From positions 1 through 39,617 of the IMG/VR virus record IMGVR_UViG_2703718858_000001: a DNA stretch of 39,617 nucleotides; one strand, given 5' to 3'. The stretch's first letter is position 1; each line of letters begins with the position of its first letter. A model generated the notes under the pieces. It saw only the letters and a program-made list of their open reading frames with translations. It was not told where the DNA came from and ran no database searches. Below, piece by piece: positions 1 through 39,617 of the stretch. Made by a program: the position numbers and the translations under genes. The DNA comes from a virus (taxonomy: Duplodnaviria; Heunggongvirae; Uroviricota; Caudoviricetes).

Positions 1-516
1 ATGAAATTTAAAAAATGTCTTCTGCCTGTGGCAATGTTAGCGTCATTCACTCTGGCAGGATGCCAGTCAAATGCTGACGATCATGCTGCCGATGTTTATC
101 AAACCGATCAACTGAATACCAAACAAGAAACTAAAACCGTTAATATTATTTCCATTCTTCCCGCAAAAGTTGCCGTAGACAACTCCCAAAATAAACGGAA
201 CGCACAAGCCTTCGGCGCGCTTATTGGCGCAGTCGCTGGCGGTGTTATCGGCCACAACGTCGGGTCTGGCAGCAATTCCGGAACGACGGCAGGTGCAGTT
301 GGCGGCGGAGCTGTAGGCGCGGCAGCGGGTTCTATGGTGAATGATAAAACCTTAGTGGAAGGTGTTTCTTTAACCTATAAGGAAGGCACCAAAGTGTATA
401 CCTCTACCCAGGTGGGTAAAGAGTGCCAGTTTACGACAGGTTTAGCCGTTGTTATTACCACGACGTATAACGAAACGCGTATTCAGCCAAATACCAAATG
501 TCCTGAAAAGAGCTAA
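1..516 (+). CDS. Outer-membrane lipoprotein with glycine-zipper region (YcfJ/Rick_17kDa_Anti-like); probably host
   Basis: Lipobox LAGC near N-terminus; Gly-rich GALIGAVAGGVIGHNVGSG segment; lies left of a strong terminator and the phage lysis genes. Confidence 0.6.
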   Translation: MKFKKCLLPVAMLASFTLAGCQSNADDHAADVYQTDQLNTKQETKTVNIISILPAKVAVDNSQNKRNAQAFGALIGAVAGGVIGHNVGSGSNSGTTAGAVGGGAVGAAAGSMVNDKTLVEGVSLTYKEGTKVYTSTQVGKECQFTTGLAVVITTTYNETRIQPNTKCPEKS

Positions 517-531
517 TAATCAGGAGGAGTC

Positions 532-1071
532 ATGAAGAAAGTTTTTCTTTGCGCCATCTTAGCCTCCTTAAGCTATCCGGCTATCGCCTCATCATTGCAG
601 GATCAACTCTCTGCTGTCGCAGAAGCGGAACAGCAAGGTAAAAATGAAGAGCAAAGGCAGCATGACGAATGGGTCGCGGAGCGCAACAGGGAAATCCAGC
701 AAGAGAAGCAACGTCGCGCAAATGCCCAGGCCGCCGCTAACAAAAGAGCGGCAACGGCAGCGGCAAATAAGAAAGCTCGTCAGGATAAACTGGACGCCGA
801 AGCCTCTGCGGACAAAAAACGCGATCAAAGTTATGAAGATGAGCTACGCAGCTTAGAGATTCAGAAACAAAAACTGGCGCTGGCGAAAGAAGAAGCCCGC
901 GTTAAGCGAGAAAACGAATTTATCGATCAGGAACTGAAGCACAAAGCTGCGCAAACCGATGTGGTGCAATCTGAAGCTGACGCCAACAGAAATATGACTG
1001 AAGGCGGTCGCGATCTGATGAAAAGCGTGGGCAAAGCAGAAGAGAACAAATCGGACAGCTGGTTTAATTAA
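532..1071 (+). CDS. Secreted coiled-coil protein of unknown function; probably host
   Basis: Signal peptide MKKVFLCAILASLSYPAIA; charged Ala/Lys/Glu/Gln-rich body; SD AGGAGG 5 nt upstream; followed by terminator. Confidence 0.55.
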   Translation: MKKVFLCAILASLSYPAIASSLQDQLSAVAEAEQQGKNEEQRQHDEWVAERNREIQQEKQRRANAQAAANKRAATAAANKKARQDKLDAEASADKKRDQSYEDELRSLEIQKQKLALAKEEARVKRENEFIDQELKHKAAQTDVVQSEADANRNMTEGGRDLMKSVGKAEENKSDSWFN

Positions 1072-1110
1072 TCGATGTTAGTAACTTCAATCCTATAATT
1101 CTTGAAGATA

Positions 1111-1142
1111 AAAAACCCTCTGTAGTAACAGAGGGTTTTGTT
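1111..1142. terminator. Bidirectional rho-independent terminator
   Basis: 10-bp perfect stem AACCCTCTGT/ACAGAGGGTT with AGTA loop, A-run upstream and T-run downstream. Confidence 0.75.
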
Positions 1143-1288
1143 CATTCATAGTGCAGGGTCAAATCATTCCCACTCAATTATTTACGGACGCCATAACCAA
1201 TTGAGTGATAACACTTTTCTAAAGCTAAATTTTCCTCGTACCGTTTTATATACCGTCACCGGAAATCAGTACCATGAAAAATGCCATG

Positions 1289-1771
1289 CTATCTGGTCAG
1301 GGTGTCGTACTGTTTTTCGCAGACTCTTCCGGCTTCGGCTGCCCGGTCAGCATACTCTGCCAGTTGTCTGTTTCTCTCGAGAGATTTGCTGAGCACGTCG
1401 GCAAGCAAAACTCCGGTGTCTGCGGCTGACGTCCCAGCGCCGACAATGGCGTTATACTGCCTGAGCTGCTCACGGATGGCAAAGAGTTGTTGCTGCAACC
1501 GGCCAGCGCGAGCGGCAGCATCAAGAGCATCATTGCGCGCCTGGTCGATCCTCTGCTGCGCTTCACGTTCATTGATCGATTTCTCCTGTTCGTAGTGCTG
1601 ACGAACTCTCTCATCTTCAGCTTTGCGGTCTTCCTTCGCCTGCGCATACCCGGCGTCGTACTGACGACTGCCGTGTGCATTCCAGGCTACAACTCATGAT
1701 ATGACCAGAACAGCAAGCATCGCCATGATAACCAACTGTTTCCAGTATGCTTTTGCGAATGCCAAGATCAT
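1289..1771 (-). pseudogene. i-spanin (Rz-like) interrupted by in-frame TGA at 1694-1696
   Basis: ATG at 1771 overlaps endolysin stop (ATGA); 25-codon hydrophobic N-terminus [25 protein letters not shown], then TGA, then same-frame coiled-coil periplasmic domain to stop at 1289. Confidence 0.6.
1297..1533 (-). CDS. o-spanin (Rz1-like) lipoprotein embedded in Rz in +1 frame
   Basis: MMLLMLPLALAGCS lipobox, Pro-rich 78 aa, fully nested within Rz reading frame region. Confidence 0.7.
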   Translation of the reverse strand: MMLLMLPLALAGCSNNSLPSVSSSGSITPLSALGRQPQTPEFCLPTCSANLSRETDNWQSMLTGQPKPEESAKNSTTP

Positions 1772-2397
1772 ACCGCCAGCACCTTACTGGCAGTGATGTA
1801 CCGCGCGCGCCGGTCGTCGATGCCGTTCCGGCCACCATTGATAATCAGAGTTACACGTGCAATATCGCCGGTATACTTCATGCATCCTTTGCTGGCGAAG
1901 AACCACGCCGCGCTACGAGCCGCATATTCGTCCTGCGCCAGCAGTTCAGGATTCTCCAGCAGGTCAACCTTCAGACCGTTTCCGCAATCACGATAGTTAT
2001 TCAAACCGGTAATCTGGATAAGTCCGCGACCTCGGTAATTCCATCCATCGCCGGGGGCATTGTTCCCCATGCGTTTGCTGTACACCAGATTGGCAATCGC
2101 TCTCTGGCGCTCAAGTGGCAATGGTGGTTCGCCTGCGCGTCGCCCCAATGCGTTGGCCTGTCCCTGGGTGAGACGCCCAGCCCGAACGAAGTTAGCCAGT
2201 CCGGTGACGCTGTAGTTGAAATTTTCCTGCAACTGGTTGAAGCCCCCAGACTCATGCCCGACTTGAGCAATAAACATTGCCTGCTCTTCTGGTTTGCTGA
2301 TACCAAACTCTCTCATCGCAGAAGTTATATGCGAGAACCAGCGTGCAGCCAGCGCCTCGCTGATACCAGCGGCTCGCTGGAATTGTTTAATCTCCAT
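1768..2397 (-). CDS. Endolysin, glycoside hydrolase family 19-like
   Basis: MEIKQFQ start with GAGG SD; motifs [12 protein letters not shown] and [12 protein letters not shown] typical of GH19 phage lysozymes; ORF-track N-terminal extension rejected. Confidence 0.8.
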
Positions 2398-2695
2398 GTT
2401 TAGACCTCGATACTTTGAAAATTTGAACGACGTTACCGCGCGTTTTAATAACCGCAGCGAGCATGACAGCGTTGATAATGACCTCAGATAAATCCACAGC
2501 CATTGGCGTGCGGAACCAGATTGTATAGGCAACACGAACCGGAATACTGGCCGCAGCAACAATCAGGAAATAAGCAAGCCACCCCCCCCATCTTCGATGT
2601 TGAGATCCGTTACGCCGGAATGTGACAACGCGAATTGCTATGCCAGTACAAATAACTGCATTGGTGATAAGCAAAAAAAACTCATGCGTTACCAT
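2387..2695 (-). CDS. Small membrane protein of lysis cassette (holin partner/antiholin candidate)
   Basis: ATG at 2695 overlaps holin 3' end; two hydrophobic segments; sits between holin and endolysin. Confidence 0.5.
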
Positions 2696-3086
2696 CGTCT
2701 TTTCTCCCCGGAATTAACTCGCGTGGATTATCGGAACGGTGATAGAGCCAGATGCCAATTCGTACTGCGACGATTGCTGACACAAATGCGCCAGCAGAGA
2801 AAACAATCCCTTTCTCGAAAGAGTCCTGCGTGATGGTAGGTATCAGGCTGGCTATGCCGATAAGAATTGATGCTGTGGGTTTGTAGAAGAGAAGACCGCA
2901 GAGAAAGCTGAGTAACGCCAGGAGAAAGCGGCGCTTGACAGGATACTCTACTGCAGAGGTAACAAAAATTACCGCCCCGGCCAGCGATCCAAGCGCCACT
3001 TCAGGAGGTACGCCGGCGATGACTGCCGCCAGCGCACCGTAGCTAAGTCCCTGATTTATCGTATCAGCTGTTAGCGATGCGGACAT
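2682..3086 (-). CDS. Holin candidate
   Basis: ATG 3086 with GGTGG SD; multiple TM segments; first gene of lysis cassette. Confidence 0.6.
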   Translation of the reverse strand: MSASLTADTINQGLSYGALAAVIAGVPPEVALGSLAGAVIFVTSAVEYPVKRRFLLALLSFLCGLLFYKPTASILIGIASLIPTITQDSFEKGIVFSAGAFVSAIVAVRIGIWLYHRSDNPRELIPGRKDDGNA

Positions 3087-3175
3087 GATGACCACCGTTT
3101 ACTATGCATGATGAACCTCCTTAGTTGGGTAAGTTCATCATACACAATAAACCGTTTATGGATAAATGGTAATAG

Positions 3176-5338
3176 TTAAGCGCTGAAACCGCCGACTCTA
3201 ACTTTTAGCGTAGAGAGATCAACATTAACAGTTATGTTTAATACACCACTCCCCGCTGAAATAGAGAATAAGCGCCGTCCGCCTGACGTTCCGCCCCCCG
3301 CCGGTGGAGTGGTATCGAGTTCACCTGTGATCGATATTGAAATGGTACCCTCACGGTTAGCAACGAGTAGCTCTAAACATTCAGCCCAGGTGTTTTGTGC
3401 AGAAGACCAAGCATCGATAAGGATTCTCTGCGTCGTTCTGTTTGGTATTGCGATGGATTTGACTTCACCTGTATTTACCAGACCTTGAAAACGAGTTCCG
3501 TAATCTATCCAGCTAATGCTATAACCTGCATTTGCTGCAGGGTCTTGAGAGGTATACCAGGTCTTGGTTCTCACGCCAGTATGACCGATTGTCAGTAGAG
3601 GACGAGCAAATTGATCTCGATGAATGTATGCATTATCTCTGATCCCGTTGCTCTGCAGATCAATATCTGCAGCACGTGGATTAGGGAAAGTCGCTTTTCC
3701 ACCAACATCAAAAACATCATAATGATTTGCAACTGCAGGAATCCATCCGTTCCTGTCCAGATTTCTAAAGAAATCCTCGAAAGCCAGCCAGTATGATTGC
3801 TGATGACCTAAAAGGTTAGGGTGAACAGTCTGTATTTCAGGGGTCCGGTCAAATAATGCCGTTTCACCATATTTAGCAACAGCATCAAACCAGTATTTTT
3901 CCACATCGATAAGCACGCAACCCATTTCTACAGCGATTTTCCTGATCGCATCGTTTCCTCGAAGGAAGCGGACACCTGCTTGAATATTTACCCCATTCCA
4001 CTCAAACGTGACATTTGAGTTTGCGGCAGATGGTATAATGTTATTATCAGAGACTGGGGCCGGAGAAGATGAAGGCCATATTTGAGAAATTCCAGCCGGC
4101 ATGCTCCAGCTATATTCAGAAATATTCGGATGAGGTGTGGTTGTTAGCACAACATCCCCGCCGGCCTCCCTGACTAAATTAATAGCATTTCGAAGGCGCT
4201 GTTTAAATCCGTTTTCATTGAATGTTTGCCCGGCATTATATTGTGCGGTAGGAAAATCATTCATTCCATATATAAACAAAGCAATATCAGGATATATTCC
4301 TTCAGCAACAACTTCAGGCCATTGGTTAACAATAAAATTATTTATCGTTGAACCATTAACAGATTTGTTTGTGAAGTTAATGGGATAAATACGCTGCTTA
4401 TTTAGCGTATCGTTCATATACTCAAAAAATTTAGCAACTGGTGCCTGTGTTGCTGGATCAGGAAGCGTAGCACCAACCCCAACAGAAGAACCAAACCCAT
4501 AGAGTCGAAATAAGTTCTGATAGCCAGAAACCCCATGCCGATAAGCTGTTAATTTATTGACGAAATTTGGGAAAAGGGCCTGTGATGATCCAGACGCAGC
4601 ACGAATAGAAGCCTCTACCGTTCTTCCTGTTTCCGTAGCAACTAAGCCAGCACCGTCTTTTGATGCTAGCTTGATTGCCAAATCTGCCGTTTCAGTTTGC
4701 CCTGCAATCGGAACAGGATCCCCCTGGTCATTGAATCCAATCAGCATATTTGCTCTGGCTCGTACAGATGCCATGATTCCTACCTGACTTTCCGGAACTC
4801 GCAAAGTTCGCTGGAAAAGACCATCTGCATGATGAGTGCTGTCATTGTCTCCCGAGTCCACATAAGATTTTGTTGCTGCATCCTGTGCCTGTGACGGGTC
4901 ACGCAGATTACGAATGCGGTTGTTGAGTGCGTCGTAATAGTTCGCGATGAACGACGGCTTACGCAGCGCCAGGCGGAGAAAGCTGAAGCACTGCTGGATA
5001 AGCATGGTCAGCTTGTCGAACGCATCCTCATGTACCTCTGCGAAAAATTTCCCCTGGTTACGCAGATCAGTCTCCTGGGTAACAGGCAAGTCACGTGAGA
5101 TAGAGATTTGCCATCCGTTGGCCAGAGGTGACATCAACACAATGCTCCCACCTGAATAGCTTCCCGCCCCGGTAACGGAGTAATCGGTATCCAGAGTAAG
5201 TACCGTAATATTTTCGTTAAGGTCAGCAACCTGTACTGTCAGATCTGACTTCTTGAAAATACGAAACTTGTACGGGAAAGATGTGGTAACGCCGTTACCA
5301 GTGTATTCGTTGTGGTCAACTTCGGTTGAGACCGTCAT
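3176..5338 (-). CDS. Tailspike/tail fibre with T7 gp17-like N-terminal adaptor domain and SGNH-hydrolase-like central region
   Basis: N-terminus MTVSTEVDHNEYTGNGVTTSFPY...LDTDY resembles podovirus fibre attachment domain; GFGSS, GMND and HPN motifs resemble SGNH blocks I, III, V; GGAGA SD. Confidence 0.75.
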   Translation of the reverse strand: MTVSTEVDHNEYTGNGVTTSFPYKFRIFKKSDLTVQVADLNENITVLTLDTDYSVTGAGSYSGGSIVLMSPLANGWQISISRDLPVTQETDLRNQGKFFAEVHEDAFDKLTMLIQQCFSFLRLALRKPSFIANYYDALNNRIRNLRDPSQAQDAATKSYVDSGDNDSTHHADGLFQRTLRVPESQVGIMASVRARANMLIGFNDQGDPVPIAGQTETADLAIKLASKDGAGLVATETGRTVEASIRAASGSSQALFPNFVNKLTAYRHGVSGYQNLFRLYGFGSSVGVGATLPDPATQAPVAKFFEYMNDTLNKQRIYPINFTNKSVNGSTINNFIVNQWPEVVAEGIYPDIALFIYGMNDFPTAQYNAGQTFNENGFKQRLRNAINLVREAGGDVVLTTTPHPNISEYSWSMPAGISQIWPSSSPAPVSDNNIIPSAANSNVTFEWNGVNIQAGVRFLRGNDAIRKIAVEMGCVLIDVEKYWFDAVAKYGETALFDRTPEIQTVHPNLLGHQQSYWLAFEDFFRNLDRNGWIPAVANHYDVFDVGGKATFPNPRAADIDLQSNGIRDNAYIHRDQFARPLLTIGHTGVRTKTWYTSQDPAANAGYSISWIDYGTRFQGLVNTGEVKSIAIPNRTTQRILIDAWSSAQNTWAECLELLVANREGTISISITGELDTTPPAGGGTSGGRRLFSISAGSGVLNITVNVDLSTLKVRVGGFSA

Positions 5339-5441
5339 GTTAAATCTCCAGATAGTCGCAGCACCCGTTGCGCCGCATATCTGGTTATTCTATTACCTGA
5401 AAAACCATATATGTATAGAAAGACTATAAATACCAATAGAT

Positions 5442-5458
5442 ATTACCTTTATGGTAAT
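5442..5458. promoter_or_regulatory. 17-bp palindromic operator ATTACC-TTTAT-GGTAAT
   Basis: Perfect inverted repeat; same motif recurs at OL, OR and other promoters in the window. Confidence 0.6.
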
Positions 5459-5496
5459 TTGCAAAACGTGCTGGATAGCAAACAAATTATTTGATA

Positions 5497-5512
5497 CTGT
5501 ATAAATATACAG
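5497..5512 (+). promoter_or_regulatory. LexA (SOS) box CTGTATAAATATACAG
   Basis: CTGT-N8-ACAG with AT-only core; flanks TA...TT extend the 20-mer match; ends 21 bp upstream of ATG 5534. Confidence 0.7.
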
Positions 5513-5533
5513 TTATTGCATGGAGAAGATAAG

Positions 5534-5791
5534 ATGCAGCGGTATCACTATCCACTGGAAGACGGATTTACCGAAAGGATTCACACGCCGGGAGGCGTCA
5601 GGTCACTGGTGGAGGGATCGCACTTGATGAAATTACTCCGGGATCTCGATAAGGATGGATTTAATGTCGATGGCCCACTTGCCGAACTGACTGCACTGAT
5701 TAACTACGTCACCAGCTCACAGATGTCTATGCAGGATCTGCAAACACATCTCGACTATTGTGCCGAACAATTACGAAAACAAACCCGGTAA
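5534..5791 (+). CDS. Small antirepressor-domain protein (paralog of Bro-N antirepressor C-terminus), putatively SOS-regulated
   Basis: ATG 5534 with GGAGAAG SD; 85 aa; aligns with C-terminal ~70 aa of 6940-7650 protein (IH.P.GV..L.E.S.LM.LL..L..DG..V.G..AELT...Y......D.QTH..Y). Confidence 0.6.
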   Translation: MQRYHYPLEDGFTERIHTPGGVRSLVEGSHLMKLLRDLDKDGFNVDGPLAELTALINYVTSSQMSMQDLQTHLDYCAEQLRKQTR

Positions 5792-5797
5792 ATTTAA

Positions 5798-5822
5798 AGG
5801 CCGCAAGAGCGGCCTATCGTTT
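5798..5822. terminator. Hairpin terminator between convergent genes
   Basis: AGGCCGC-AAGA-GCGGCCT stem-loop followed by T-rich tract. Confidence 0.5.
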
Positions 5823-6542
5823 CGCTTTGTGCTCATCCCAGCACGTTTTGCACCATGCCATTAAGCCGTCCGCATTTTGATTATTAGGGTAAAAGCTGGT
5901 TCGTTTTCTGCGGACATTACAAATTGGGCACCACTTCATATGGCGTGTATTCTTTGGGCCATCGAGACACCTTGCACACCACTTAGTCAATCCATCTGGA
6001 TTTTTTGACGATTTCCTGAATTTTTCATATGGAAGGTTTATTCTGCATCGCAAGCACTGCTTGCTACCACTTGAAACTCTGTTAGCTGATTCTTCTTTTG
6101 GCGGCGATACAGAAGGTATTCTTGCTGGCTCTGATACTGCCTGAGGTGCTTTTTTAGATGACTGAGACGATATGTCATCACCAGGGAATCTTCCATGATA
6201 TGCCGGACGCGTTGACACTCCAGGTGGAAGCTCAGCTGTAAACGGCTTTGGCTGAATCAGTTGCCTCTCTTTTGCTAACTCCTGCTGTTTATAATATGTC
6301 TGGATTACCGCACTATCATAAGCAGGAGGTGCGGAAATATCAGGCGCATTACCTCCAGTTTTTTGAAACTGAGTAGAGGTGTGTTCTATCACCTGTGTAC
6401 GATTAATCGTTATCTCCCCATCTTCGGTCTTTATCGTTTTGTTATGATTAACGACCGTACGATCAGAGATCTTAGTCTTGTTCTGGTTGATAACGTAAAT
6501 AATCACCGCAACCACACCAACAACTATCCAGAAAACTTCCAT
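5814..6542 (-). CDS. Membrane-anchored protein with C-terminal tandem zinc-ribbon (CxxC...WCxxC x2)
   Basis: N-terminal TM helix, Pro/Ser-rich linker, two repeats of a DGL-x2-WC-x2-C motif; GAGGAA SD; operator 6562-6578 just upstream. Confidence 0.65.
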   Translation of the reverse strand: MEVFWIVVGVVAVIIYVINQNKTKISDRTVVNHNKTIKTEDGEITINRTQVIEHTSTQFQKTGGNAPDISAPPAYDSAVIQTYYKQQELAKERQLIQPKPFTAELPPGVSTRPAYHGRFPGDDISSQSSKKAPQAVSEPARIPSVSPPKEESANRVSSGSKQCLRCRINLPYEKFRKSSKNPDGLTKWCARCLDGPKNTRHMKWCPICNVRRKRTSFYPNNQNADGLMAWCKTCWDEHKAKR

Positions 6543-6939: not shown

Positions 6940-7650
6940 ATGGCTAATGCTCAAACTGCCATCTTCAAATTTGAATCTGTTAACCCTATCCGTTCCATCA
7001 TTATCGATGGCCAACCATGGTTTGTAGCCCAAGACGTTTGTAGTGCGCTGCGTATCCAAAACGTCACCCAAGCACTTGAAAAACTGGATGATGATGAAAG
7101 GTCTATGTTCAACATAGGGCATGAACATCGTGCAATTTTTGACAGCCGAGTAAAAGAGATCAACATCATCTCCGAGTCAGGCCTCTACACACTGATCCTC
7201 CGCTGCCGCGACGCAGTGACACCAGGCACTATCCCCTACCGCTTTCGTAAATGGGTTACAGGTGAGGTTCTTCCTCAGATCCGCCGCACCGGAAGTTACA
7301 TTAAAAACTCGCTCCCGCAGGAAGAACGCATAAAGATGGTTGCCGACCAGGTTGCAAACGCCACAGCATCAGCAGTGATGCAGGCGATGAAGATAGAGAA
7401 CAAAACCTACAGTGCCCCGCTGAAGCCCGGCTACCGCAGCCTGATTCATTCGCCGTCTGGTGTTCTCGGCCTGACGGAGAACTCACTGCTGATGAATTTG
7501 CTGAACCAGTTACAGGAAGACGGGCATGACGTATCGGGCGCAGCGGCGGAACTGACCACCATGTTCTGCTACATCGTCGGTGTGAGCAAATGCCTGCGTG
7601 ATATCCAGACGCACGCGGAGTACATCAACGACAAAGCAGGGTTCTTCTGA
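6940..7650 (+). CDS. Antirepressor, Bro-N domain protein with C-terminal domain shared with 5534-5791
   Basis: N-terminus FKFESVNPIRSIIIDGQPWFVAQDV...GLYTLILRCRD...FRKWVTGEVLPQIRRTGSY matches Bro-N pattern; ATG 6940 preferred over GTG 6925. Confidence 0.75.
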   Translation: MANAQTAIFKFESVNPIRSIIIDGQPWFVAQDVCSALRIQNVTQALEKLDDDERSMFNIGHEHRAIFDSRVKEINIISESGLYTLILRCRDAVTPGTIPYRFRKWVTGEVLPQIRRTGSYIKNSLPQEERIKMVADQVANATASAVMQAMKIENKTYSAPLKPGYRSLIHSPSGVLGLTENSLLMNLLNQLQEDGHDVSGAAAELTTMFCYIVGVSKCLRDIQTHAEYINDKAGFF

Positions 7651-16516: not shown

Positions 16517-16980
16517 TATTTTCTCTCCATGTGAAATCTGTGGAAATTAAGACCAAGAGCACCATAAGGCGCGGCTTCTTCAAGCCTGAATCCAAGCCAG
16601 TGCAGCCATGCTTTGGCAACATGGTTTCGCTCGTCGACATAGTTTTCCAGGCGCGGATAAACTGCCAGCATCTGCTGCAATACAGGGCGGCAGTGGCGAA
16701 GAAATGTCTTCTGATATTTTTCGATACGGCTGGTTCCGACCAGCCAGGGCGTACCATTGCCACCGATCATTGACGCCGGAGATACGCCAAACATGGTTAC
16801 CAGTTCTCCGTTCGCGAACCCTGACCAGGCCATAGTCGCAGTGCGAAGACCAACGCGCAGCGCATCTTCGGTAGTCATCAGCGATACCGCATACAGTTCG
16901 TCAATATCAGCCTGACGAACATCCGGCAAAATCATCTCAAGATGCTCTTCGGTAGCGGGAATAATTTGAACATCGATCAT
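16516..16980 (-). CDS. Virion-associated protein (gp13-like position)
   Basis: 154 aa; ATGA overlap both sides. Confidence 0.45.
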   Translation of the reverse strand: MIDVQIIPATEEHLEMILPDVRQADIDELYAVSLMTTEDALRVGLRTATMAWSGFANGELVTMFGVSPASMIGGNGTPWLVGTSRIEKYQKTFLRHCRPVLQQMLAVYPRLENYVDERNHVAKAWLHWLGFRLEEAAPYGALGLNFHRFHMERK

Positions 16981-19445
16981 CAGAATCCCCCAACAGTAAG
17001 GCGAGGAATAACGGCAAGAACAGACAGCGGCAACGGGTCAAGCTGACGGATTTTTACACGCCCGTTTTTGCCCCAGTTACTGTCCAGTTTCACTTCTACT
17101 TTTCCGGTAGCATCATCAACAGGATCATCGTAGAACTCGAATTCACGCTGTGGATATTCGTACCATTTACCGCCGGGCGTAGTCGCCCAGATGCCGCGAC
17201 TGGCATTCACAACCAGAGTAACGGAGGGGATCACCTGTTTTTTGTCCAGCAGCGTTTCCTGTCCGTTAATGTTGATATCCAGTGTTTCGAATTCAGCAGT
17301 TATTGGCAGGCCGATGTGCACTACAGCCCCCGGAGATTCCAGCGTGACGGCACCTCCGGAAACCACTTTCTGTGGTTCCACGTTCGCATCAGAGAGAATG
17401 TTTACGGTCTGGTCTTCAAGATGAGACAGGCCTCCAAATGTCCGGCGCGCCATCTGCCAGTTCGTGGTGGCCACATTCCTGAGGGATGGCGGGACGTTCC
17501 TGTTAGCACGAACCACTACAGCGGTATTGCTGGTTACAGAAATAATGTCGCAACGTAATTCTTTTGACACCTCATCGCCAGGATCAGTTCCGGTATAAGG
17601 GAACTGTAGTTGCGCGCCGACATCACTACTGGTGAAGTACGCACCACCAGAAACACTGATTGTATATTCCGCACGGTAATCCCATTCACCAGAACCACCA
17701 GTGATGGTCATCGTTCTGTCAGACGTATTTCTTCCATCATAGCTAAGGCCAGAATCAACAAAGAAAGCATCTTCATCGCTGGTAAATAAACGGCTGGACA
17801 GTCGCTCTATGTATCTCACTGTTTGCCCGTTAACGGTTCGGTTAACGACGAAATACACCGCATCTTCATTGCCTTCGCTGATACTGCATGTGCTTTCATA
17901 TTTTCCGGTACTGGATTGTGGTGCCCATGCAAAAACCTGCTGATCACGCAAATAGGTCATCACCAGTAATTTACCGTCATCACGAATGCAGAAGGCGCTG
18001 GAGTAAGGGACAATCGAGAAGCACCAGTCAACAATGCTGTGCTTCTGAAAAAGATGATTGGCAAGGATGGTCAGGTCGTTCCCCTGATAGCCGTCAACAT
18101 CGAATGAGTAGGCCAGATCACGGACAACACTGCCTTTCTCCTGGACGAACAGAGCAATATTCGCCACGGCAATTGGTGGGACATTGCTCGAGCCATTTGA
18201 TCCCTGAGAGCTGAATGCAAATGATGATGGGGTAAGCACTTTGTTCTGGTCGCCAGTGATGACGTACTCACCTCCGGAAGTCAGCGCCACCAGCGAACCA
18301 ACATCAATCAGGTGACGGATCTCATTAACCTGACGCCCGGCATAGGTGTAGATAATTCTGTCGTCATCCTGCGTAGGATTGCTTTTGCCAAAATCCTTAT
18401 AATCCCCGGTACGGCTGGCCCAGATAGTCTGAGGGAACGCAGTCGATGCGGCGAAGTAAAGGCGTTGTTGATAATAAACAACAGTGCCAGGATAACCGTT
18501 AATACTGTTCCAGGCATATTTAGCCCATTTATAGCTGGCATTATCCTCGCCAACTACCTGCGAAGGGATATAGGAAATCACCTCGGCAGTTGCAGTAGTT
18601 CCATTTGCAGCAGAGATACGGGCAATGCCAAAACCACTGTGCAGATACTCCCACTCAATGCCGGTATCATCATCACCGGATCCGCCCCAGCCATCCCATG
18701 ATGTGCCTTCTGTATGCGAAGGGCGCAAAGTGCCTGTTTTGCCTGCTGTAACGGCGCGATAGTAGTTACTGTCTGCACGGCGAATATCGCCAATCGACGT
18801 ACTCTTACTGGTTTCCCATACCGGCACTGAATCCACTGCAGGCTGTTCCAGATAGAACAATTTGCCTACCTGCTCCGCGCCAAAAATAGAGGCGCTTGCC
18901 GTTAACGTAATTGTCCCGGTGCTGGCGCTGGCATAAACCGTCACTGACTCGTCAATATTGATATCTTCAAATGGCCCGTTCTTCGTTACCACATCAACCA
19001 GTTGCCAGTTGTCATGAGCATATCGGCGCAACTCTTTCGGCGGGTATGCCGGGTGAACCAGCGTAAGCACGTCGGCGCTTTGCGTGAATTTAATTCGGAA
19101 CAGATCGGCTTCAGTATATGGCGTGGCAATTTCATAAATAACATTGCTGCTGTTCAGCACCAACGCACCATCTTTGATAACGCGCATGTACTGGTGTCCG
19201 AACTCCAGAGCATAGGTCTGAACCGTCGAGAACTGGAACGGGATCAGGCGGCATTTCCGATTTGGGTATTTGGCGGCACCGACAAAACGCGTACCAGGTC
19301 GATTCTCAACGCCGCCATACTGCCGCACGATAAAGTTATCGCACTTGCGCAATGCTACCTGGTACTTCGCCATGTCAATACGCCCGTACAACGACGGTCC
19401 AATCTCACCACCGGCAAAGCTGGGCTGGATCCAACTGATAGCCAT
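16980..19445 (-). CDS. Tail tubular protein B-like (nozzle)
   Basis: 821 aa versus T7 gp12 794 aa; position after gp11-like gene. Confidence 0.5.
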   Translation of the reverse strand: MAISWIQPSFAGGEIGPSLYGRIDMAKYQVALRKCDNFIVRQYGGVENRPGTRFVGAAKYPNRKCRLIPFQFSTVQTYALEFGHQYMRVIKDGALVLNSSNVIYEIATPYTEADLFRIKFTQSADVLTLVHPAYPPKELRRYAHDNWQLVDVVTKNGPFEDINIDESVTVYASASTGTITLTASASIFGAEQVGKLFYLEQPAVDSVPVWETSKSTSIGDIRRADSNYYRAVTAGKTGTLRPSHTEGTSWDGWGGSGDDDTGIEWEYLHSGFGIARISAANGTTATAEVISYIPSQVVGEDNASYKWAKYAWNSINGYPGTVVYYQQRLYFAASTAFPQTIWASRTGDYKDFGKSNPTQDDDRIIYTYAGRQVNEIRHLIDVGSLVALTSGGEYVITGDQNKVLTPSSFAFSSQGSNGSSNVPPIAVANIALFVQEKGSVVRDLAYSFDVDGYQGNDLTILANHLFQKHSIVDWCFSIVPYSSAFCIRDDGKLLVMTYLRDQQVFAWAPQSSTGKYESTCSISEGNEDAVYFVVNRTVNGQTVRYIERLSSRLFTSDEDAFFVDSGLSYDGRNTSDRTMTITGGSGEWDYRAEYTISVSGGAYFTSSDVGAQLQFPYTGTDPGDEVSKELRCDIISVTSNTAVVVRANRNVPPSLRNVATTNWQMARRTFGGLSHLEDQTVNILSDANVEPQKVVSGGAVTLESPGAVVHIGLPITAEFETLDININGQETLLDKKQVIPSVTLVVNASRGIWATTPGGKWYEYPQREFEFYDDPVDDATGKVEVKLDSNWGKNGRVKIRQLDPLPLSVLAVIPRLTVGGF

Positions 19446-25578: not shown

Positions 25579-25655
25579 GTGGCATTAGCTCAGTTGGACA
25601 GAGCAACCGCCTTCTAAGCGGTTGGTCGCAGGTTCGAATCCTGCATGCCACGCCA
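25579..25655 (+). tRNA. tRNA-Arg (anticodon UCU), phage-encoded
   Basis: Perfect 7-bp acceptor stem GTGGCAT/ATGCCAC, U8, D-arm GCTC..GAGC with GG, anticodon stem ACCGC/GCGGT, loop CTTCTAA, T-arm GCAGG-TTCGAAT-CCTGC, discriminator G and CCA. Confidence 0.9.
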
Positions 25656-34790: not shown

Positions 34791-35090
34791 ATGAACGTTA
34801 ATCAGCAGAAAAATCTTCAAAAAATCATGCTGGCATTCGACAAGGACTACCGCCTGTCAGAACAGCTATATGACCGACAAGTTGAACTGATTGAGAGTAT
34901 CCGGCTTCATCAACTGGCCTCAACTTTCGACGTTGTAACAGGCAAAGGCGTTCGCCAGGAAGTGCTGGAGGCTGCTAAAGACAGCCCTGAGTTCGAAGAA
35001 CTGATGGATGCCTATCGGCGAGAGGCAATGGCAATTATCGCCCGCTGGGATCTGGCGGATCAGCTTGATGGACAGAGGGACGCGGCATGA
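34791..35090 (+). CDS. Hypothetical early protein
   Basis: ATG 34791 with GGGAGGG SD; ATGA-coupled to exonuclease. Confidence 0.5.
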   Translation: MNVNQQKNLQKIMLAFDKDYRLSEQLYDRQVELIESIRLHQLASTFDVVTGKGVRQEVLEAAKDSPEFEELMDAYRREAMAIIARWDLADQLDGQRDAA

Positions 35091-35908
35091 AACCGGGAAT
35101 TTATTTCGACATCAGCAACGAAGACTACCACGCCGGTGACGGCGTGAGTAAGTCGCAACTGGACATGGTTGCCAAGAATCCGGCGCTTCTTAAATGGGTC
35201 CAGGCAGCACCAGAAGACGAAGAGAAAAAGTCTGCACTGGATATTGGAACCGCATTGCACTGTCTGCTTCTGGAGCCTGGAGAATTCGACAAACGCTTCA
35301 TTGTTTCACCGAAGTTCGATCGTCGGACGAAACAAGGTAAAGCTGACGAAGAAGCATTTCTTCGTGATGTAGCGGATATGGGGATTACGGTACTTGATGC
35401 CGAGCAGTGGCGGAAACTGGAGCTGATGCGTGATAGCGCAATGGCTCACCCGGCGGCACGCTGGGTGCTGGAAGCACCTGGTTACTGCGAAGCATCAATG
35501 TACTGGAATGATGAAGAGACTGGTGAGTTGTGCCGCATTCGTCCAGACAAATGGCTGAACGAGCACAACGTGATCGTCGACGTGAAAAAGGTTGCAGATA
35601 TGGACCGTTTTGCACGCCACATCGAGGAATTCCGCTACCACGTGCAGGACGCAATGTACCGCGAAGGTGCAATGAGGGTTACTGGTCAGCCGCATGGTTT
35701 TTTCTTTCTTGCCGTGAGCGAAAGCATTGATTGTGGTCGGTATCCGGTACGCGTGTTCGAGCTGGATGCGCCGGATGTCGATGCCGGGCACGCTCTGTTC
35801 CGCCGGGATCTGAATACCTATCACGAATGCCGCATCAACGATGAGTGGGGCGGAGTGGAAATTATTAAACGCCCTGACTGGGCACGTAAACAGGATATAT
35901 ACGTATGA
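35087..35908 (+). CDS. PD-(D/E)XK exonuclease (RecE/exodeoxyribonuclease VIII-like)
   Basis: MKPGIYFDISNEDYHAG N-terminus, RPD...IVDVKK motif; coupled to RecT. Confidence 0.75.
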   Translation: MKPGIYFDISNEDYHAGDGVSKSQLDMVAKNPALLKWVQAAPEDEEKKSALDIGTALHCLLLEPGEFDKRFIVSPKFDRRTKQGKADEEAFLRDVADMGITVLDAEQWRKLELMRDSAMAHPAARWVLEAPGYCEASMYWNDEETGELCRIRPDKWLNEHNVIVDVKKVADMDRFARHIEEFRYHVQDAMYREGAMRVTGQPHGFFFLAVSESIDCGRYPVRVFELDAPDVDAGHALFRRDLNTYHECRINDEWGGVEIIKRPDWARKQDIYV

Positions 35909-36822
35909 GCAACGAAATTGCAATCACCAATGATGTGTTGGCTATTCGGGGAATCGATGAAGTTACATGGAGCGCTCTGAAAAACAGTATTTACCCTGGG
36001 GCAAAAGATGAATCGGTAATGATGGCAGTCGATTACTGCCGGGCGCGTCAACTCGATCCTCTTCTTAAGCCGGTACACCTGGTACCAATGAGTGTTAAAG
36101 ACTCGAAGAGTGGAAAGAATGAATGGCGCGACGTGGTCATGCCTGGCATTGGACTTTATCGCATTCAGGCCTACCGTTCCGGCGATTACGCAGGCGCTAA
36201 TGAACCTGAGTTCGGTCCAGATGTAACACAAACGCTTTCAGGCGTGGAGGTTACCTTCCCTCAGTGGTGTAAGTACACCGTCAGCAAGCGAATGGCAAGC
36301 GGGGAAATCGTAGAGTTTAGCGCCAAAGAATACTGGATTGAGAACTATGCAACTGGGGGGCGTGACACATCGGCACCAAATGCCATGTGGAAAAAGCGCC
36401 CTTATGCGCAGTTGGCAAAATGCGCAGAGGCACAGGCATTACGTAAAGCATGGCCGGAGATTGGTCAACAAGCCACAGCTGAGGAAATGGAAGGTAAATA
36501 TATCGACTCACCTGACATTATTGAACGTGACGTAACTCCAAGAAGTCAGGCAAAGCACGGCACAGCATCCAGCATGAACAGTCTGATCAACGCTAAACCA
36601 GCGAAAAAGCCTGATGAGCAAACGCGTAAATCGGACAGCCGTGATCCAGAAGAAATGCTGATGGCCTTTACCAGCGCAGCGATGAACTACAGCACTGTCT
36701 CCGAACTGGATAAGGCTTACAAATACATTGCACAAAAACTTTCAGATGATGACGAACTGCTGGCAAAAGCCACCGACGTTTACAGCGTTCGTCGGGAAGA
36801 ATTAAACGAAACATCTATGTAA
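35905..36822 (+). CDS. recT: RecT-family single-strand annealing recombinase
   Basis: 305 aa directly after exonuclease with ATGA overlap. Confidence 0.75.
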   Translation: MSNEIAITNDVLAIRGIDEVTWSALKNSIYPGAKDESVMMAVDYCRARQLDPLLKPVHLVPMSVKDSKSGKNEWRDVVMPGIGLYRIQAYRSGDYAGANEPEFGPDVTQTLSGVEVTFPQWCKYTVSKRMASGEIVEFSAKEYWIENYATGGRDTSAPNAMWKKRPYAQLAKCAEAQALRKAWPEIGQQATAEEMEGKYIDSPDIIERDVTPRSQAKHGTASSMNSLINAKPAKKPDEQTRKSDSRDPEEMLMAFTSAAMNYSTVSELDKAYKYIAQKLSDDDELLAKATDVYSVRREELNETSM

Positions 36823-37229: not shown

Positions 37230-37529
37230 GTGAGAAAGTTAAGCCGACTTGAAAAATATCACATGAACAAGGTTTCAATGCGCAGCCCTTCAAAGATTGT
37301 CGCCGTTACTCCTGCGGCGATAGAGATCGAAAAACGCGCGATTGAAAGAGAGAAAAAAGGGCAATTCCGCATTGCCGCTCACCTTTGGCTTCAGTGTATG
37401 GATGTTGCTTCTGGTGATGTTGAGCGTGCAAGGATCGCGGTTCGCAGGGACCAATGTATCACAAAAGGTAACGGCCTTCGCCGTGGCGACTATAGCGGCA
37501 TAGGATGTTGCGGGGTGGTTTATGACTAA
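37230..37529 (+). CDS. Hypothetical protein
   Basis: GTG start with GAGAGGG SD; overlaps methyltransferase start. Confidence 0.45.
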   Translation: MRKLSRLEKYHMNKVSMRSPSKIVAVTPAAIEIEKRAIEREKKGQFRIAAHLWLQCMDVASGDVERARIAVRRDQCITKGNGLRRGDYSGIGCCGVVYD

Positions 37530-38172
37530 GAAATACACGCTAATCTATGCAGATCCACCCTGGGTATACCGGGACAAAGCCGCAGATGGTAATCGCGGTG
37601 CCGGTTTTAAATATCCGGTTATGAGTGTGCTGGATATCTGCCGCCTTCCTGTGTGGGATTTGGCCGATGAAAACTGTCTGTTGGCCATGTGGTGGGTGCC
37701 AACACAACCACTCGAAGCACTAAAAGTTGTTGAAGCCTAGGGATTCCGTCTGATGACCATGAAGGGTTTCACGTGGATAAAATGTGGTAGTCGACAACCA
37801 GATAAACTGGTTATGGGTATGGGACACATGACTCGCGCCAATAGTGAAGATTGCCTGTTTGCGGTAAAGGGAAAACTACCTCCGCGCATTAATGCAGGGA
37901 TCGTTCAGTCATTTACCGCACCGCGGCTTGAGCATTCAAGAAAACCAGATGTCGTTCGTGAAAAACTTGTGCAATTGTTAGGCGATGTTTCTCGCATTGA
38001 ACTGTTCGCCCGCCAGTCGTCTCATGGTTTCGATGTTTGGGGTAATCAGTGCGAAGACCCGGCAGTGCAACTACATCCTGGATACGCGTTGGATATTGGC
38101 GGATTAACAAATGCATTCAGCAATGCTCCGCTGTCACCAACAGACAACCAGGGGCAGGAGCGTGCAGCATGA
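37522..38172 (+). pseudogene. MT-A70-family N6-adenine DNA methyltransferase with in-frame amber (TAG 37738-37740)
   Basis: N-terminus ...YADPPW...; ORFs 37522-37740 and 37753-38172 are in one frame; the TAG sits in ...LKVVEA*GF..., where I expect W from recalled homologues (AWGF). Confidence 0.7.
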
Positions 38173-38366: not shown

Positions 38367-39617
38367 TTATTCCCCCGCCATCCACTTCTCAAACTTCGAC
38401 GGGGAGAACGGAATCAGATCCGTATGCTCCCCGTTAATCCAGGAATCAATCATATCGGCCCACTGCTGCAACATGTAGGCGCGCTGTCTGGCGTATTCCG
38501 CTTTGTTATATACGGCGCGCACACCTTTCTGCTCATGTGCCAGAGCCTTTTCAATCCAGTCTGAAGGATAACCAGCCTCATGCAACAACGTACTGGCTGT
38601 ACGGCGCATATCGTGTACGGTGAAGCCCTGAATATGCTCACCATCTTCATTTATTATTTTCACCGTTCTGTCGATCAGAGAGTTCAGCGCGGCATTAGAT
38701 AATGGCTTCCGGAAATTGTAACGACCAGGAACCAGATATTCACTTCCACCAGCGCACATCTGCAACCCGACCAATATATCCTGAGCCTGTTTAGGCAGGT
38801 AAATAACGTGCGCCCGGCTTCCCTTCATGCGGTCTGAAGGAATTGTCCATGTCCATTTTTTAAAATCTATTTCATCCCACGTTGCGTTGGTGAATTCGCC
38901 TTTACGAACCATAGTGATAAGCACCAGCTTTAAAGCCATTTTCATAGTGCCCATAGCACCAATGGCATCCAGCGTGCGGAAGAACAGGCCAATTTCTTCT
39001 GGTGTCAGTGTTCGCTCTCGTGGTTTAAATATGGCGATAGACGAAGGTTTAATGTCAGCCGCAGGATTAAACAAACCATGACCACGGTCATTGGCGTGAC
39101 GGTATACGCTGCTGATGATCTCCCTGGCCTGTACTGCTGTTGCCCGACCACCACGTTCGACAATCCGGTCACACAAATCACGAACCATCGATGTGGTAAT
39201 TTCAGCCATCATTTTGTTGCCAAGAACCGGAAGTATGTCACGGTCGATCACCGCCTGCTTCATTGCTCGGGTACTGTCAGCCAGGATGACGTGTTTCATA
39301 TAACTGTCGGTATGTACCGCAAACGTCTCGGCACCACGAATCTTTTTGATACCGTCACGTTTAGCCGCAGCCGGCGACTGGCCTGCTTTAAGCAGCTTCT
39401 TTGCAGCAATCAGTTCTTCTCGCGCTTCTGCTAGACTGATACCGTCACGCCCATACTGCCCGATTACCAGTGTTTCGCGGCGACCGTTGATACGGTAGTC
39501 ATAGCGAAACGAGACCGTGCCTGACGTAAGCACAGCTACATACAGCCCGTCACGATCGGAGACCTTGTACAGTTTGTCCTGCGGCTTGAGGTTTTTTAAT
39601 TTTGTATCGGTAAGCAC
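38367..39617 (-). CDS. int: Tyrosine integrase, partial (runs off window edge)
   Basis: N-terminus (V/M)LTDTKLKNLKP..., HDMRRT box and C-terminal Tyr region; first codon at 39617 is GTG, true start likely just beyond window. Confidence 0.85.
   Translation of the reverse strand: MLTDTKLKNLKPQDKLYKVSDRDGLYVAVLTSGTVSFRYDYRINGRRETLVIGQYGRDGISLAEAREELIAAKKLLKAGQSPAAAKRDGIKKIRGAETFAVHTDSYMKHVILADSTRAMKQAVIDRDILPVLGNKMMAEITTSMVRDLCDRIVERGGRATAVQAREIISSVYRHANDRGHGLFNPAADIKPSSIAIFKPRERTLTPEEIGLFFRTLDAIGAMGTMKMALKLVLITMVRKGEFTNATWDEIDFKKWTWTIPSDRMKGSRAHVIYLPKQAQDILVGLQMCAGGSEYLVPGRYNFRKPLSNAALNSLIDRTVKIINEDGEHIQGFTVHDMRRTASTLLHEAGYPSDWIEKALAHEQKGVRAVYNKAEYARQRAYMLQQWADMIDSWINGEHTDLIPFSPSKFEKWMAGE

Follow-up and report, generated by a model that had tools for sequence, protein, structure and literature searches.

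The window, the whole 39,617-nucleotide stretch of DNA that was analysed, holds a temperate podophage of the phiV10/epsilon15 type (Uetakevirus), inserted into the chromosome of a commensal E. coli between guaA and yfgI. The host genes yfgH and yfgI occupy positions 1-1071, the integrase gene lies at 38367-39617, and guaA follows the integrase in relatives. The host genes at one end and the integrase at the other indicate that the element is a whole integrated prophage, with the minus strand as the sense strand of the phage late genes. Reading of positions 1100-2700 and listing of their open reading frames showed that minus strand positions 1289-1771 are an Rz-type i-spanin gene of 160 codons, with an in-frame TGA at codon 26. 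The features of this end of the prophage are as follows.

1112 to 1139, minus strand: terminator-like hairpin (12-bp stem) and T-run, ~150 nt past Rz, positioned as the rho-independent terminator of phiV10/epsilon15
1289 to 1693, minus strand: remainder of the i-spanin gene past the stop, untranslatable; 134 codons (1292-1693), then TAG (1289-1291)
1297 to 1572, minus strand: intact o-spanin gene (Rz1-like) of 91 codons and a stop, embedded in the +1 frame; PHROG 11621, E 5e-41
1583 to 1587, minus strand: Shine-Dalgarno-like AGGAG, 10 nt before the Rz1 ATG, conserved in phiV10 and epsilon15 by alignment
1694 to 1696, minus strand: premature opal stop TGA, codon 26; GGA (Gly) in relatives
1697 to 1771, minus strand: 5' remnant of the i-spanin gene (Rz-like, DUF2514), ATG 1769-1771 plus 24 codons
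1768 to 2397, minus strand: intact GH19 (chitinase class I type) endolysin gene, 209 aa, its stop overlapping the Rz start
2387 to 2695, minus strand: intact holin gene, 102 aa; PF05449 Phage_holin_3_7
2682 to 3086, minus strand: intact gene for a putative holin or membrane protein, 134 aa; PF16931 Phage_holin_8

The same cassette is present in phiV10, epsilon15 and E. coli EC21Z-151, where a membrane protein/holin, a holin, an endolysin, a 483-nt Rz-like spanin gene and an embedded 276-nt Rz1-like gene are followed by a terminator and then by attP/integrase. The spanin pairs of the two phages (gp30/gp30a of phiV10, gp26/Rz1 of epsilon15) match that of the window in gene order, ATGA overlap and a length of 160 codons, and the phages match it in prophage type and integration module. 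The nucleotide identity of the window's Rz region to these two, the best-known of its phage matches, is 95.6% for phiV10 and 89% for Salmonella phage epsilon15. Kongari et al. 2018 (PMC6139136) assign both phages' spanins to the embedded 'Bcep176' i-spanin and o-spanin families. More broadly, the 551-bp Rz region has matches in 520 records of the complete E. coli genome collection and in 56 phage records; the E. coli records annotate the pair as 'DUF2514 domain-containing protein' and 'glycoside hydrolase family 19 protein'. The hairpin at 1112-1139 is placed between Rz and yfgI, which is on the plus strand and ends at 1071. Because its position is that of the annotated phiV10/epsilon15 terminator, it seems to be part of the sequence common to attP and the host site.

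Elsewhere in the element, the tailspike gene (3176-5338, minus strand) encodes a 720-aa SGNH/GDSL-hydrolase type protein whose resemblance to the phiV10 tail fibre is limited to the N-terminal ~220 residues (64% identity). The phiV10 oac (O-acetyltransferase) gene, which in that phage lies between the tail fibre and the lysis cassette, is absent from the window, and same-site relatives bear an endosialidase or another receptor-binding module, a swap of host-range cassettes of the usual kind. The recombination module (35087-36822, plus strand) consists of a PD-(D/E)XK exonuclease gene and a RecT/Bet-like gene (273 and 305 aa) where phiV10 has a fused RecE-RecT, an instance of early-region mosaicism; the exact exonuclease protein occurs in only 3 contigs of the public collection, and in all of them the neighbouring genes are the same. 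A tRNA-Arg gene with anticodon TCT (rare AGA codon) lies at 25579-25655 (plus strand) between the terminase and portal regions, and is annotated in related E. coli prophages too.

The opal codon divides Rz into two unequal parts. The 5' remnant encodes the cytoplasmic N-terminus and ~13 residues of the transmembrane segment, while the remainder spans the last 5 transmembrane residues, the periplasmic helical domain and Cys151. The first-pass annotation had given every coordinate of the broken frame correctly (start at 1771, TGA at 1694-1696, 134 further codons) and had noted that the Rz start overlaps the endolysin stop, which is the case: the endolysin TGA (1768-1770) and the Rz ATG (1769-1771) share an ATGA at 1768-1771. 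It had, however, put the stop between the membrane anchor and the periplasmic domain. Hydropathy shows a single hydrophobic segment at residues 12/13-30, after Lys7 and Lys11; since this segment extends to residue 30, the stop at codon 26 lies inside its C-terminal end. The coding sequence also holds a stem-loop at 1630-1690 (minus strand; −25.7 kcal/mol) that is only modestly stabler than shuffled sequences (z = −2.5).

The identity of the gene is clear from its homologues. In a tblastn comparison, phiV10 Rz aligned with the window over 160/160 residues; the identity was 91.9%, and the alignment contained a single internal stop. When Gly was restored at codon 26, the protein matched PF10721 DUF2514 (E 9.4e-43, 146.5 bits against a cutoff of 26, residues 10-159) and PHROG 312 Rz-like spanin (E 1.4e-58). 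The gene also sits where an i-spanin gene is expected, in a lysis cassette with a cognate o-spanin: the GH19 endolysin is adjacent, two holins are upstream, and Rz1 is embedded. The one uninterrupted frame that would join an N-terminal transmembrane segment to a periplasmic domain is broken by the TGA. As judged from its sequence, the window's Rz is thus a member of the i-spanin family by descent and, as it stands, a pseudogene.

The embedded Rz1 gene is wholly inside Rz 1289-1771, its start offset by 199 nt and hence in the +1 frame. Its product is 96.7% identical to phiV10 gp30a, without an internal stop, and has the marks of an o-spanin: a signal peptide (MNVKRSRGSTRRAMMLLMLPLALAG|C, the signal ending ...MMLLMLPLALAG|C) with a lipobox LAGC (LALAGC) and its invariant Cys, and a short, Pro-rich mature protein (66 residues, among them 8 Pro and, at 56 and 60, two more Cys) encoded in an embedded +1 frame. 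The best-supported start is the ATG at 1570-1572, which has the conserved AGGAG, gives a basic n-region (MNVKRSRGSTRR) and agrees with the phiV10 annotation. For the same three reasons the first-pass placement of Rz1 at 1297-1533 needs amending at its start, most likely to 1572; that the gene is intact, lies in the +1 frame and ends at 1297 stands. The conserved AGGAG before this ATG suggests that translation of Rz1 starts independently of Rz. Rz1 lies entirely downstream of the mutation, and it probably continues to be made, though lacking the inner-membrane partner.

Upstream of the likely start, the Rz1 frame has another 36 codons without a stop, giving a 127-aa open reading frame from an ATG at 1680 (window 1297-1680). 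A longer Rz1 starting there was considered, since the ancestral sequence (TCAGGAGTT) has an AGGAG 12 nt upstream, made in part by the GGA of codon 26, that the mutation destroyed. It was dismissed: this AGGAG is absent in phiV10 (CCGGAATT) and epsilon15 (TCGGGGTG), and its lack of conservation suggests that it probably arose by chance.

Comparison with intact homologues, which the first-pass annotation had named as a way to recover the original codon, gives GGA or GGG (Gly), within a continuous 160-codon gene. Codon 26 is GGA in EC21Z-151 and phiV10 and GGG in epsilon15, and every relative outside the window's lineage (about 60 sequences) has one or the other. On the plus strand, position 1696 is A in the window and C in 59/59 aligned relatives outside its lineage, as it is in the closest complete-genome prophage, that of E. 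coli BE311 (99.1% identical over 25 kb). From the alignment, the change from GGA to TGA is a single G>T transversion on the coding strand of Rz. The other differences from the closest relatives (W3L, an 'ERV' motif) are present in intact IMG/VR relatives and are ordinary polymorphisms; what sets the window's gene apart from phiV10 and epsilon15 Rz is thus the TGA, which makes it a pseudogene. Continuous homologues with Gly at codon 26 support the nonsense mutation that had been proposed as one of two readings of the broken frame. Separately, the tail protein gene at 16980-19445 (minus strand) has a 6-bp in-frame deletion at ~17588 relative to E. coli BE311 (821 vs 823 codons).

The distribution of the TGA allele was examined in several collections. 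A 61-mer centred on the TGA had 0 exact matches in 5,426 complete E. coli genomes, in which 172 records matched with one mismatch. A 31-mer pattern in which the site could be either G or T matched 47 IMG/VR contigs, with G in 47/47; it had no match whatever in GTDB species representatives, and its T version had none in JGI metagenome contigs. The exact holin protein of the window was then looked up and found in eight places. Six of these eight prophages have G at the site, and the four that were compared without gaps differ from the window by 6-10 SNPs in ~5.7 kb. The other two have T: LCVI01000056.1 (assembly GCA_001637715.1) and the Logan assembly of SRR3492237, which are identical to the window at 5,695/5,695 bases. 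Among the collections searched, the TGA allele therefore occurs only in the window's own lineage.

Window positions 1-6400 were re-scored against all fetched relatives minus LCVI01000056.1, the SRR3492237 assembly and the same-contig locus (L067). With 8-59 relatives per position, 1696 was the sole base in this region absent from all of them, which makes the nonsense change the most recent detectable substitution in that part of the prophage.

The best explanation, and one that we hold with high confidence, is that a recent G>T mutation (Gly26 to opal) knocks out the i-spanin of a phiV10/epsilon15-like prophage, impairing the outer-membrane step of lysis. Translation of Rz would end after 25 residues, inside the transmembrane segment, and the product would lack the last five transmembrane residues and the entire periplasmic domain including Cys151. 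Past the TGA there is no in-frame start able to give an exported periplasmic domain, so that no functional i-spanin should be made. Rz1, which has a ribosome-binding site of its own, could still be translated but would lack an inner-membrane partner. Once the prophage is induced, destruction of the inner membrane and the cell wall by holin and endolysin would go ahead, whereas disruption of the outer membrane would fail or need external shear.

What such a failure may look like is suggested by phage lambda, in which Rz amber/nonsense mutants, RzQ100am among them, are reported (Berry et al. 2012; Cahill et al. 2017, PMC5295617). Nonsense mutations at 34 positions spread over the periplasmic domain of lambda Rz all made lysis defective, and a defective spanin subunit of either kind leaves spherical cells enclosed by the outer membrane (PMC5295617). 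Like the window's prophage, these mutants combine a stop in the i-spanin with an intact embedded o-spanin, and their spherical cells, stabilised by Mg2+, are what results when holin and endolysin act but the outer membrane is not disrupted (Cahill et al. 2017, PMC5295617). The window's prophage would be expected to behave likewise, producing fragile spherical cells and releasing phage poorly. This phenotype is an extrapolation from lambda, whose Rz is of a different sequence family; moreover, the alleles of lambda come from the laboratory and have their stops in the periplasmic domain, while the window carries a natural allele truncated within the transmembrane segment. The spanin complex is expected to be lost, with at most trace UGA readthrough.

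The qualification concerns the identity of the stop. Because UGA is the leakiest stop in E. coli, the knock-out of Rz may not be absolute: a few ribosomes may read it as Trp, giving a little full-length G26W protein. A stronger version of this idea, which we think unlikely, is that tRNA-Trp reads the UGA-G often enough for G26W Rz to support lysis, perhaps with a delay. UGA is the most readthrough-prone stop (PMC5289835), and its readthrough by Trp-tRNA in a K-12 reporter is ~2% at 37 °C, against 4% at 25 °C (PMC10570021). A Trp near the membrane-periplasm boundary of a transmembrane helix would plausibly be tolerated, and the hairpin noted above (z = −2.5) begins ~10 nt 3' of the UGA. Natural isolates, however, are generally better than K-12 at UGA termination. 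The +4 base is G, which is neither among the leakiest contexts reported (+4C and +4A) nor the tightest (+4U) (PMC5289835). Finally, the mutation is private and recent, and nothing therefore points to selection for a readthrough design.

We regard as improbable the reading in which the strain truly has GGA and the T is a consensus artefact of sequencing or assembly. LCVI00000000 is E. coli RiKo 2308/09 (phylogroup A, ST167), from the faeces of a healthy cow, and was assembled with SPAdes from 101-bp paired-end Illumina reads subsampled to ~70x (PMC4966475). An artefact would fit the finding of the allele in no other lineage. The two TGA records, moreover, may trace to one isolate or read set rather than be independent occurrences. 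Against this, the change replaces one base and is not a homopolymer indel, the data are Illumina at ~70x assembled with SPAdes, and the independent Logan assembly of SRR3492237 gives the same base in a sequence identical at 5,695/5,695 positions. The wider pattern of variation also argues against error. The window has 78 substitutions absent from the initial set of relatives, comprising 51 synonymous, 18 non-synonymous, 7 intergenic and 2 nonsense changes. Such mostly synonymous unshared variation is that of natural variation under purifying selection, not of random error, and an error-rich assembly was dismissed on this profile. Taken together, the privacy of the allele, the reproduced base and the uniqueness of position 1696 point to a very recent, real G>T nonsense mutation. 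Error, the other option offered by the first-pass annotation, is thus unlikely: the base recurs in the SPAdes deposit and the Logan assembly, coverage is ~70x Illumina, and the variation looks natural.

Rz is not the only damaged gene in the element. A tblastn search with all phiV10 proteins, together with translation, found 50/52 gene models intact, the exceptions being Rz and the MT-A70 DNA adenine methyltransferase gene (phiV10 p33 homologue; 37522-38172, plus strand). In the latter, codon 73 is TAG instead of TGG (Trp73), an amber stop at 37738-37740 that arose by a lineage-specific G>A change at 37739. The 61-mer around this TAG has an exact match in none of the complete E. coli genomes, and the deposited contig calls the gene as pieces of 72 and 139 aa. 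With 50/52 gene models intact, the idea that the element as a whole is a decaying prophage was dismissed. Its relatives at this integration site have lesions of their own: a frameshifted Bro gene in BE311, a peptidase frameshift in FDAARGOS_1301 and an internal stop in AlpA in strain A_5. The BE311 Bro-N gene has an extra C near 7233, whereas the window's copy (6940-7650) is intact. Isolated lesions in several relatives show that sporadic single-gene lesions are commonplace in these resident prophages; relatives have been hit in Bro, peptidase and AlpA, and the window in a lysis gene and the MT-A70 methyltransferase. A highly speculative alternative, which we judge very improbable, is that the Rz opal and methyltransferase amber codons reflect not neutral decay but selection in the lysogen for a tamed prophage, or that the leaky UGA is a low-dose setting. 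If the prophage were tamed, spanin-less cells might outlive an abortive induction for longer, or retain progeny; if the leaky UGA set a very low spanin dose, rupture of the outer membrane would be delayed.

Next to no credence attaches to a designed split or recoded gene—a transmembrane peptide plus a periplasmic protein, selenocysteine insertion or re-initiation—whose sole point in favour is the open frame past the TGA, since in every homologue the gene is a single unbroken ORF whose codon 26 encodes Gly. A two-component spanin in homologous phages, which the first-pass annotation had raised as evidence against a broken gene, was looked for and the homologues were all continuous, which rules out a two-piece spanin. 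Selenocysteine or structured recoding was rejected because no Rfam SECIS or other RNA family was found at gathering score within 1100-2000, the homologues have Gly rather than UGA or Cys, and the hairpin z-score is only −2.5. Re-initiation was likewise rejected, as the first in-frame start past the TGA is a TTG 66 codons on (a 69-aa ORF from 1498) without a signal or transmembrane segment, and the ATG to which the mutation gave rise (cATGa, 1695-1697) starts a reading frame, the third, that ends after 26 codons and has no homology argument behind it.

The knock-out of Rz by a recent nonsense mutation is an ordinary one: the gene family, the embedded architecture and the mutant phenotype are already established, and no new mechanism is involved. 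For annotation, it means that this prophage's Rz is to be marked as a pseudogene, with Rz1 kept as an annotated gene. Users of RiKo 2308/09 or its prophage for induction, phage isolation or lysis studies should, by analogy with lambda, be prepared for a defect in outer-membrane disruption and for poor release. Since its spanin-null allele is natural and its wild-type sister prophages differ by just a few SNPs, the window's prophage may also provide an isogenic pair with which to gauge the importance of spanins outside the laboratory.
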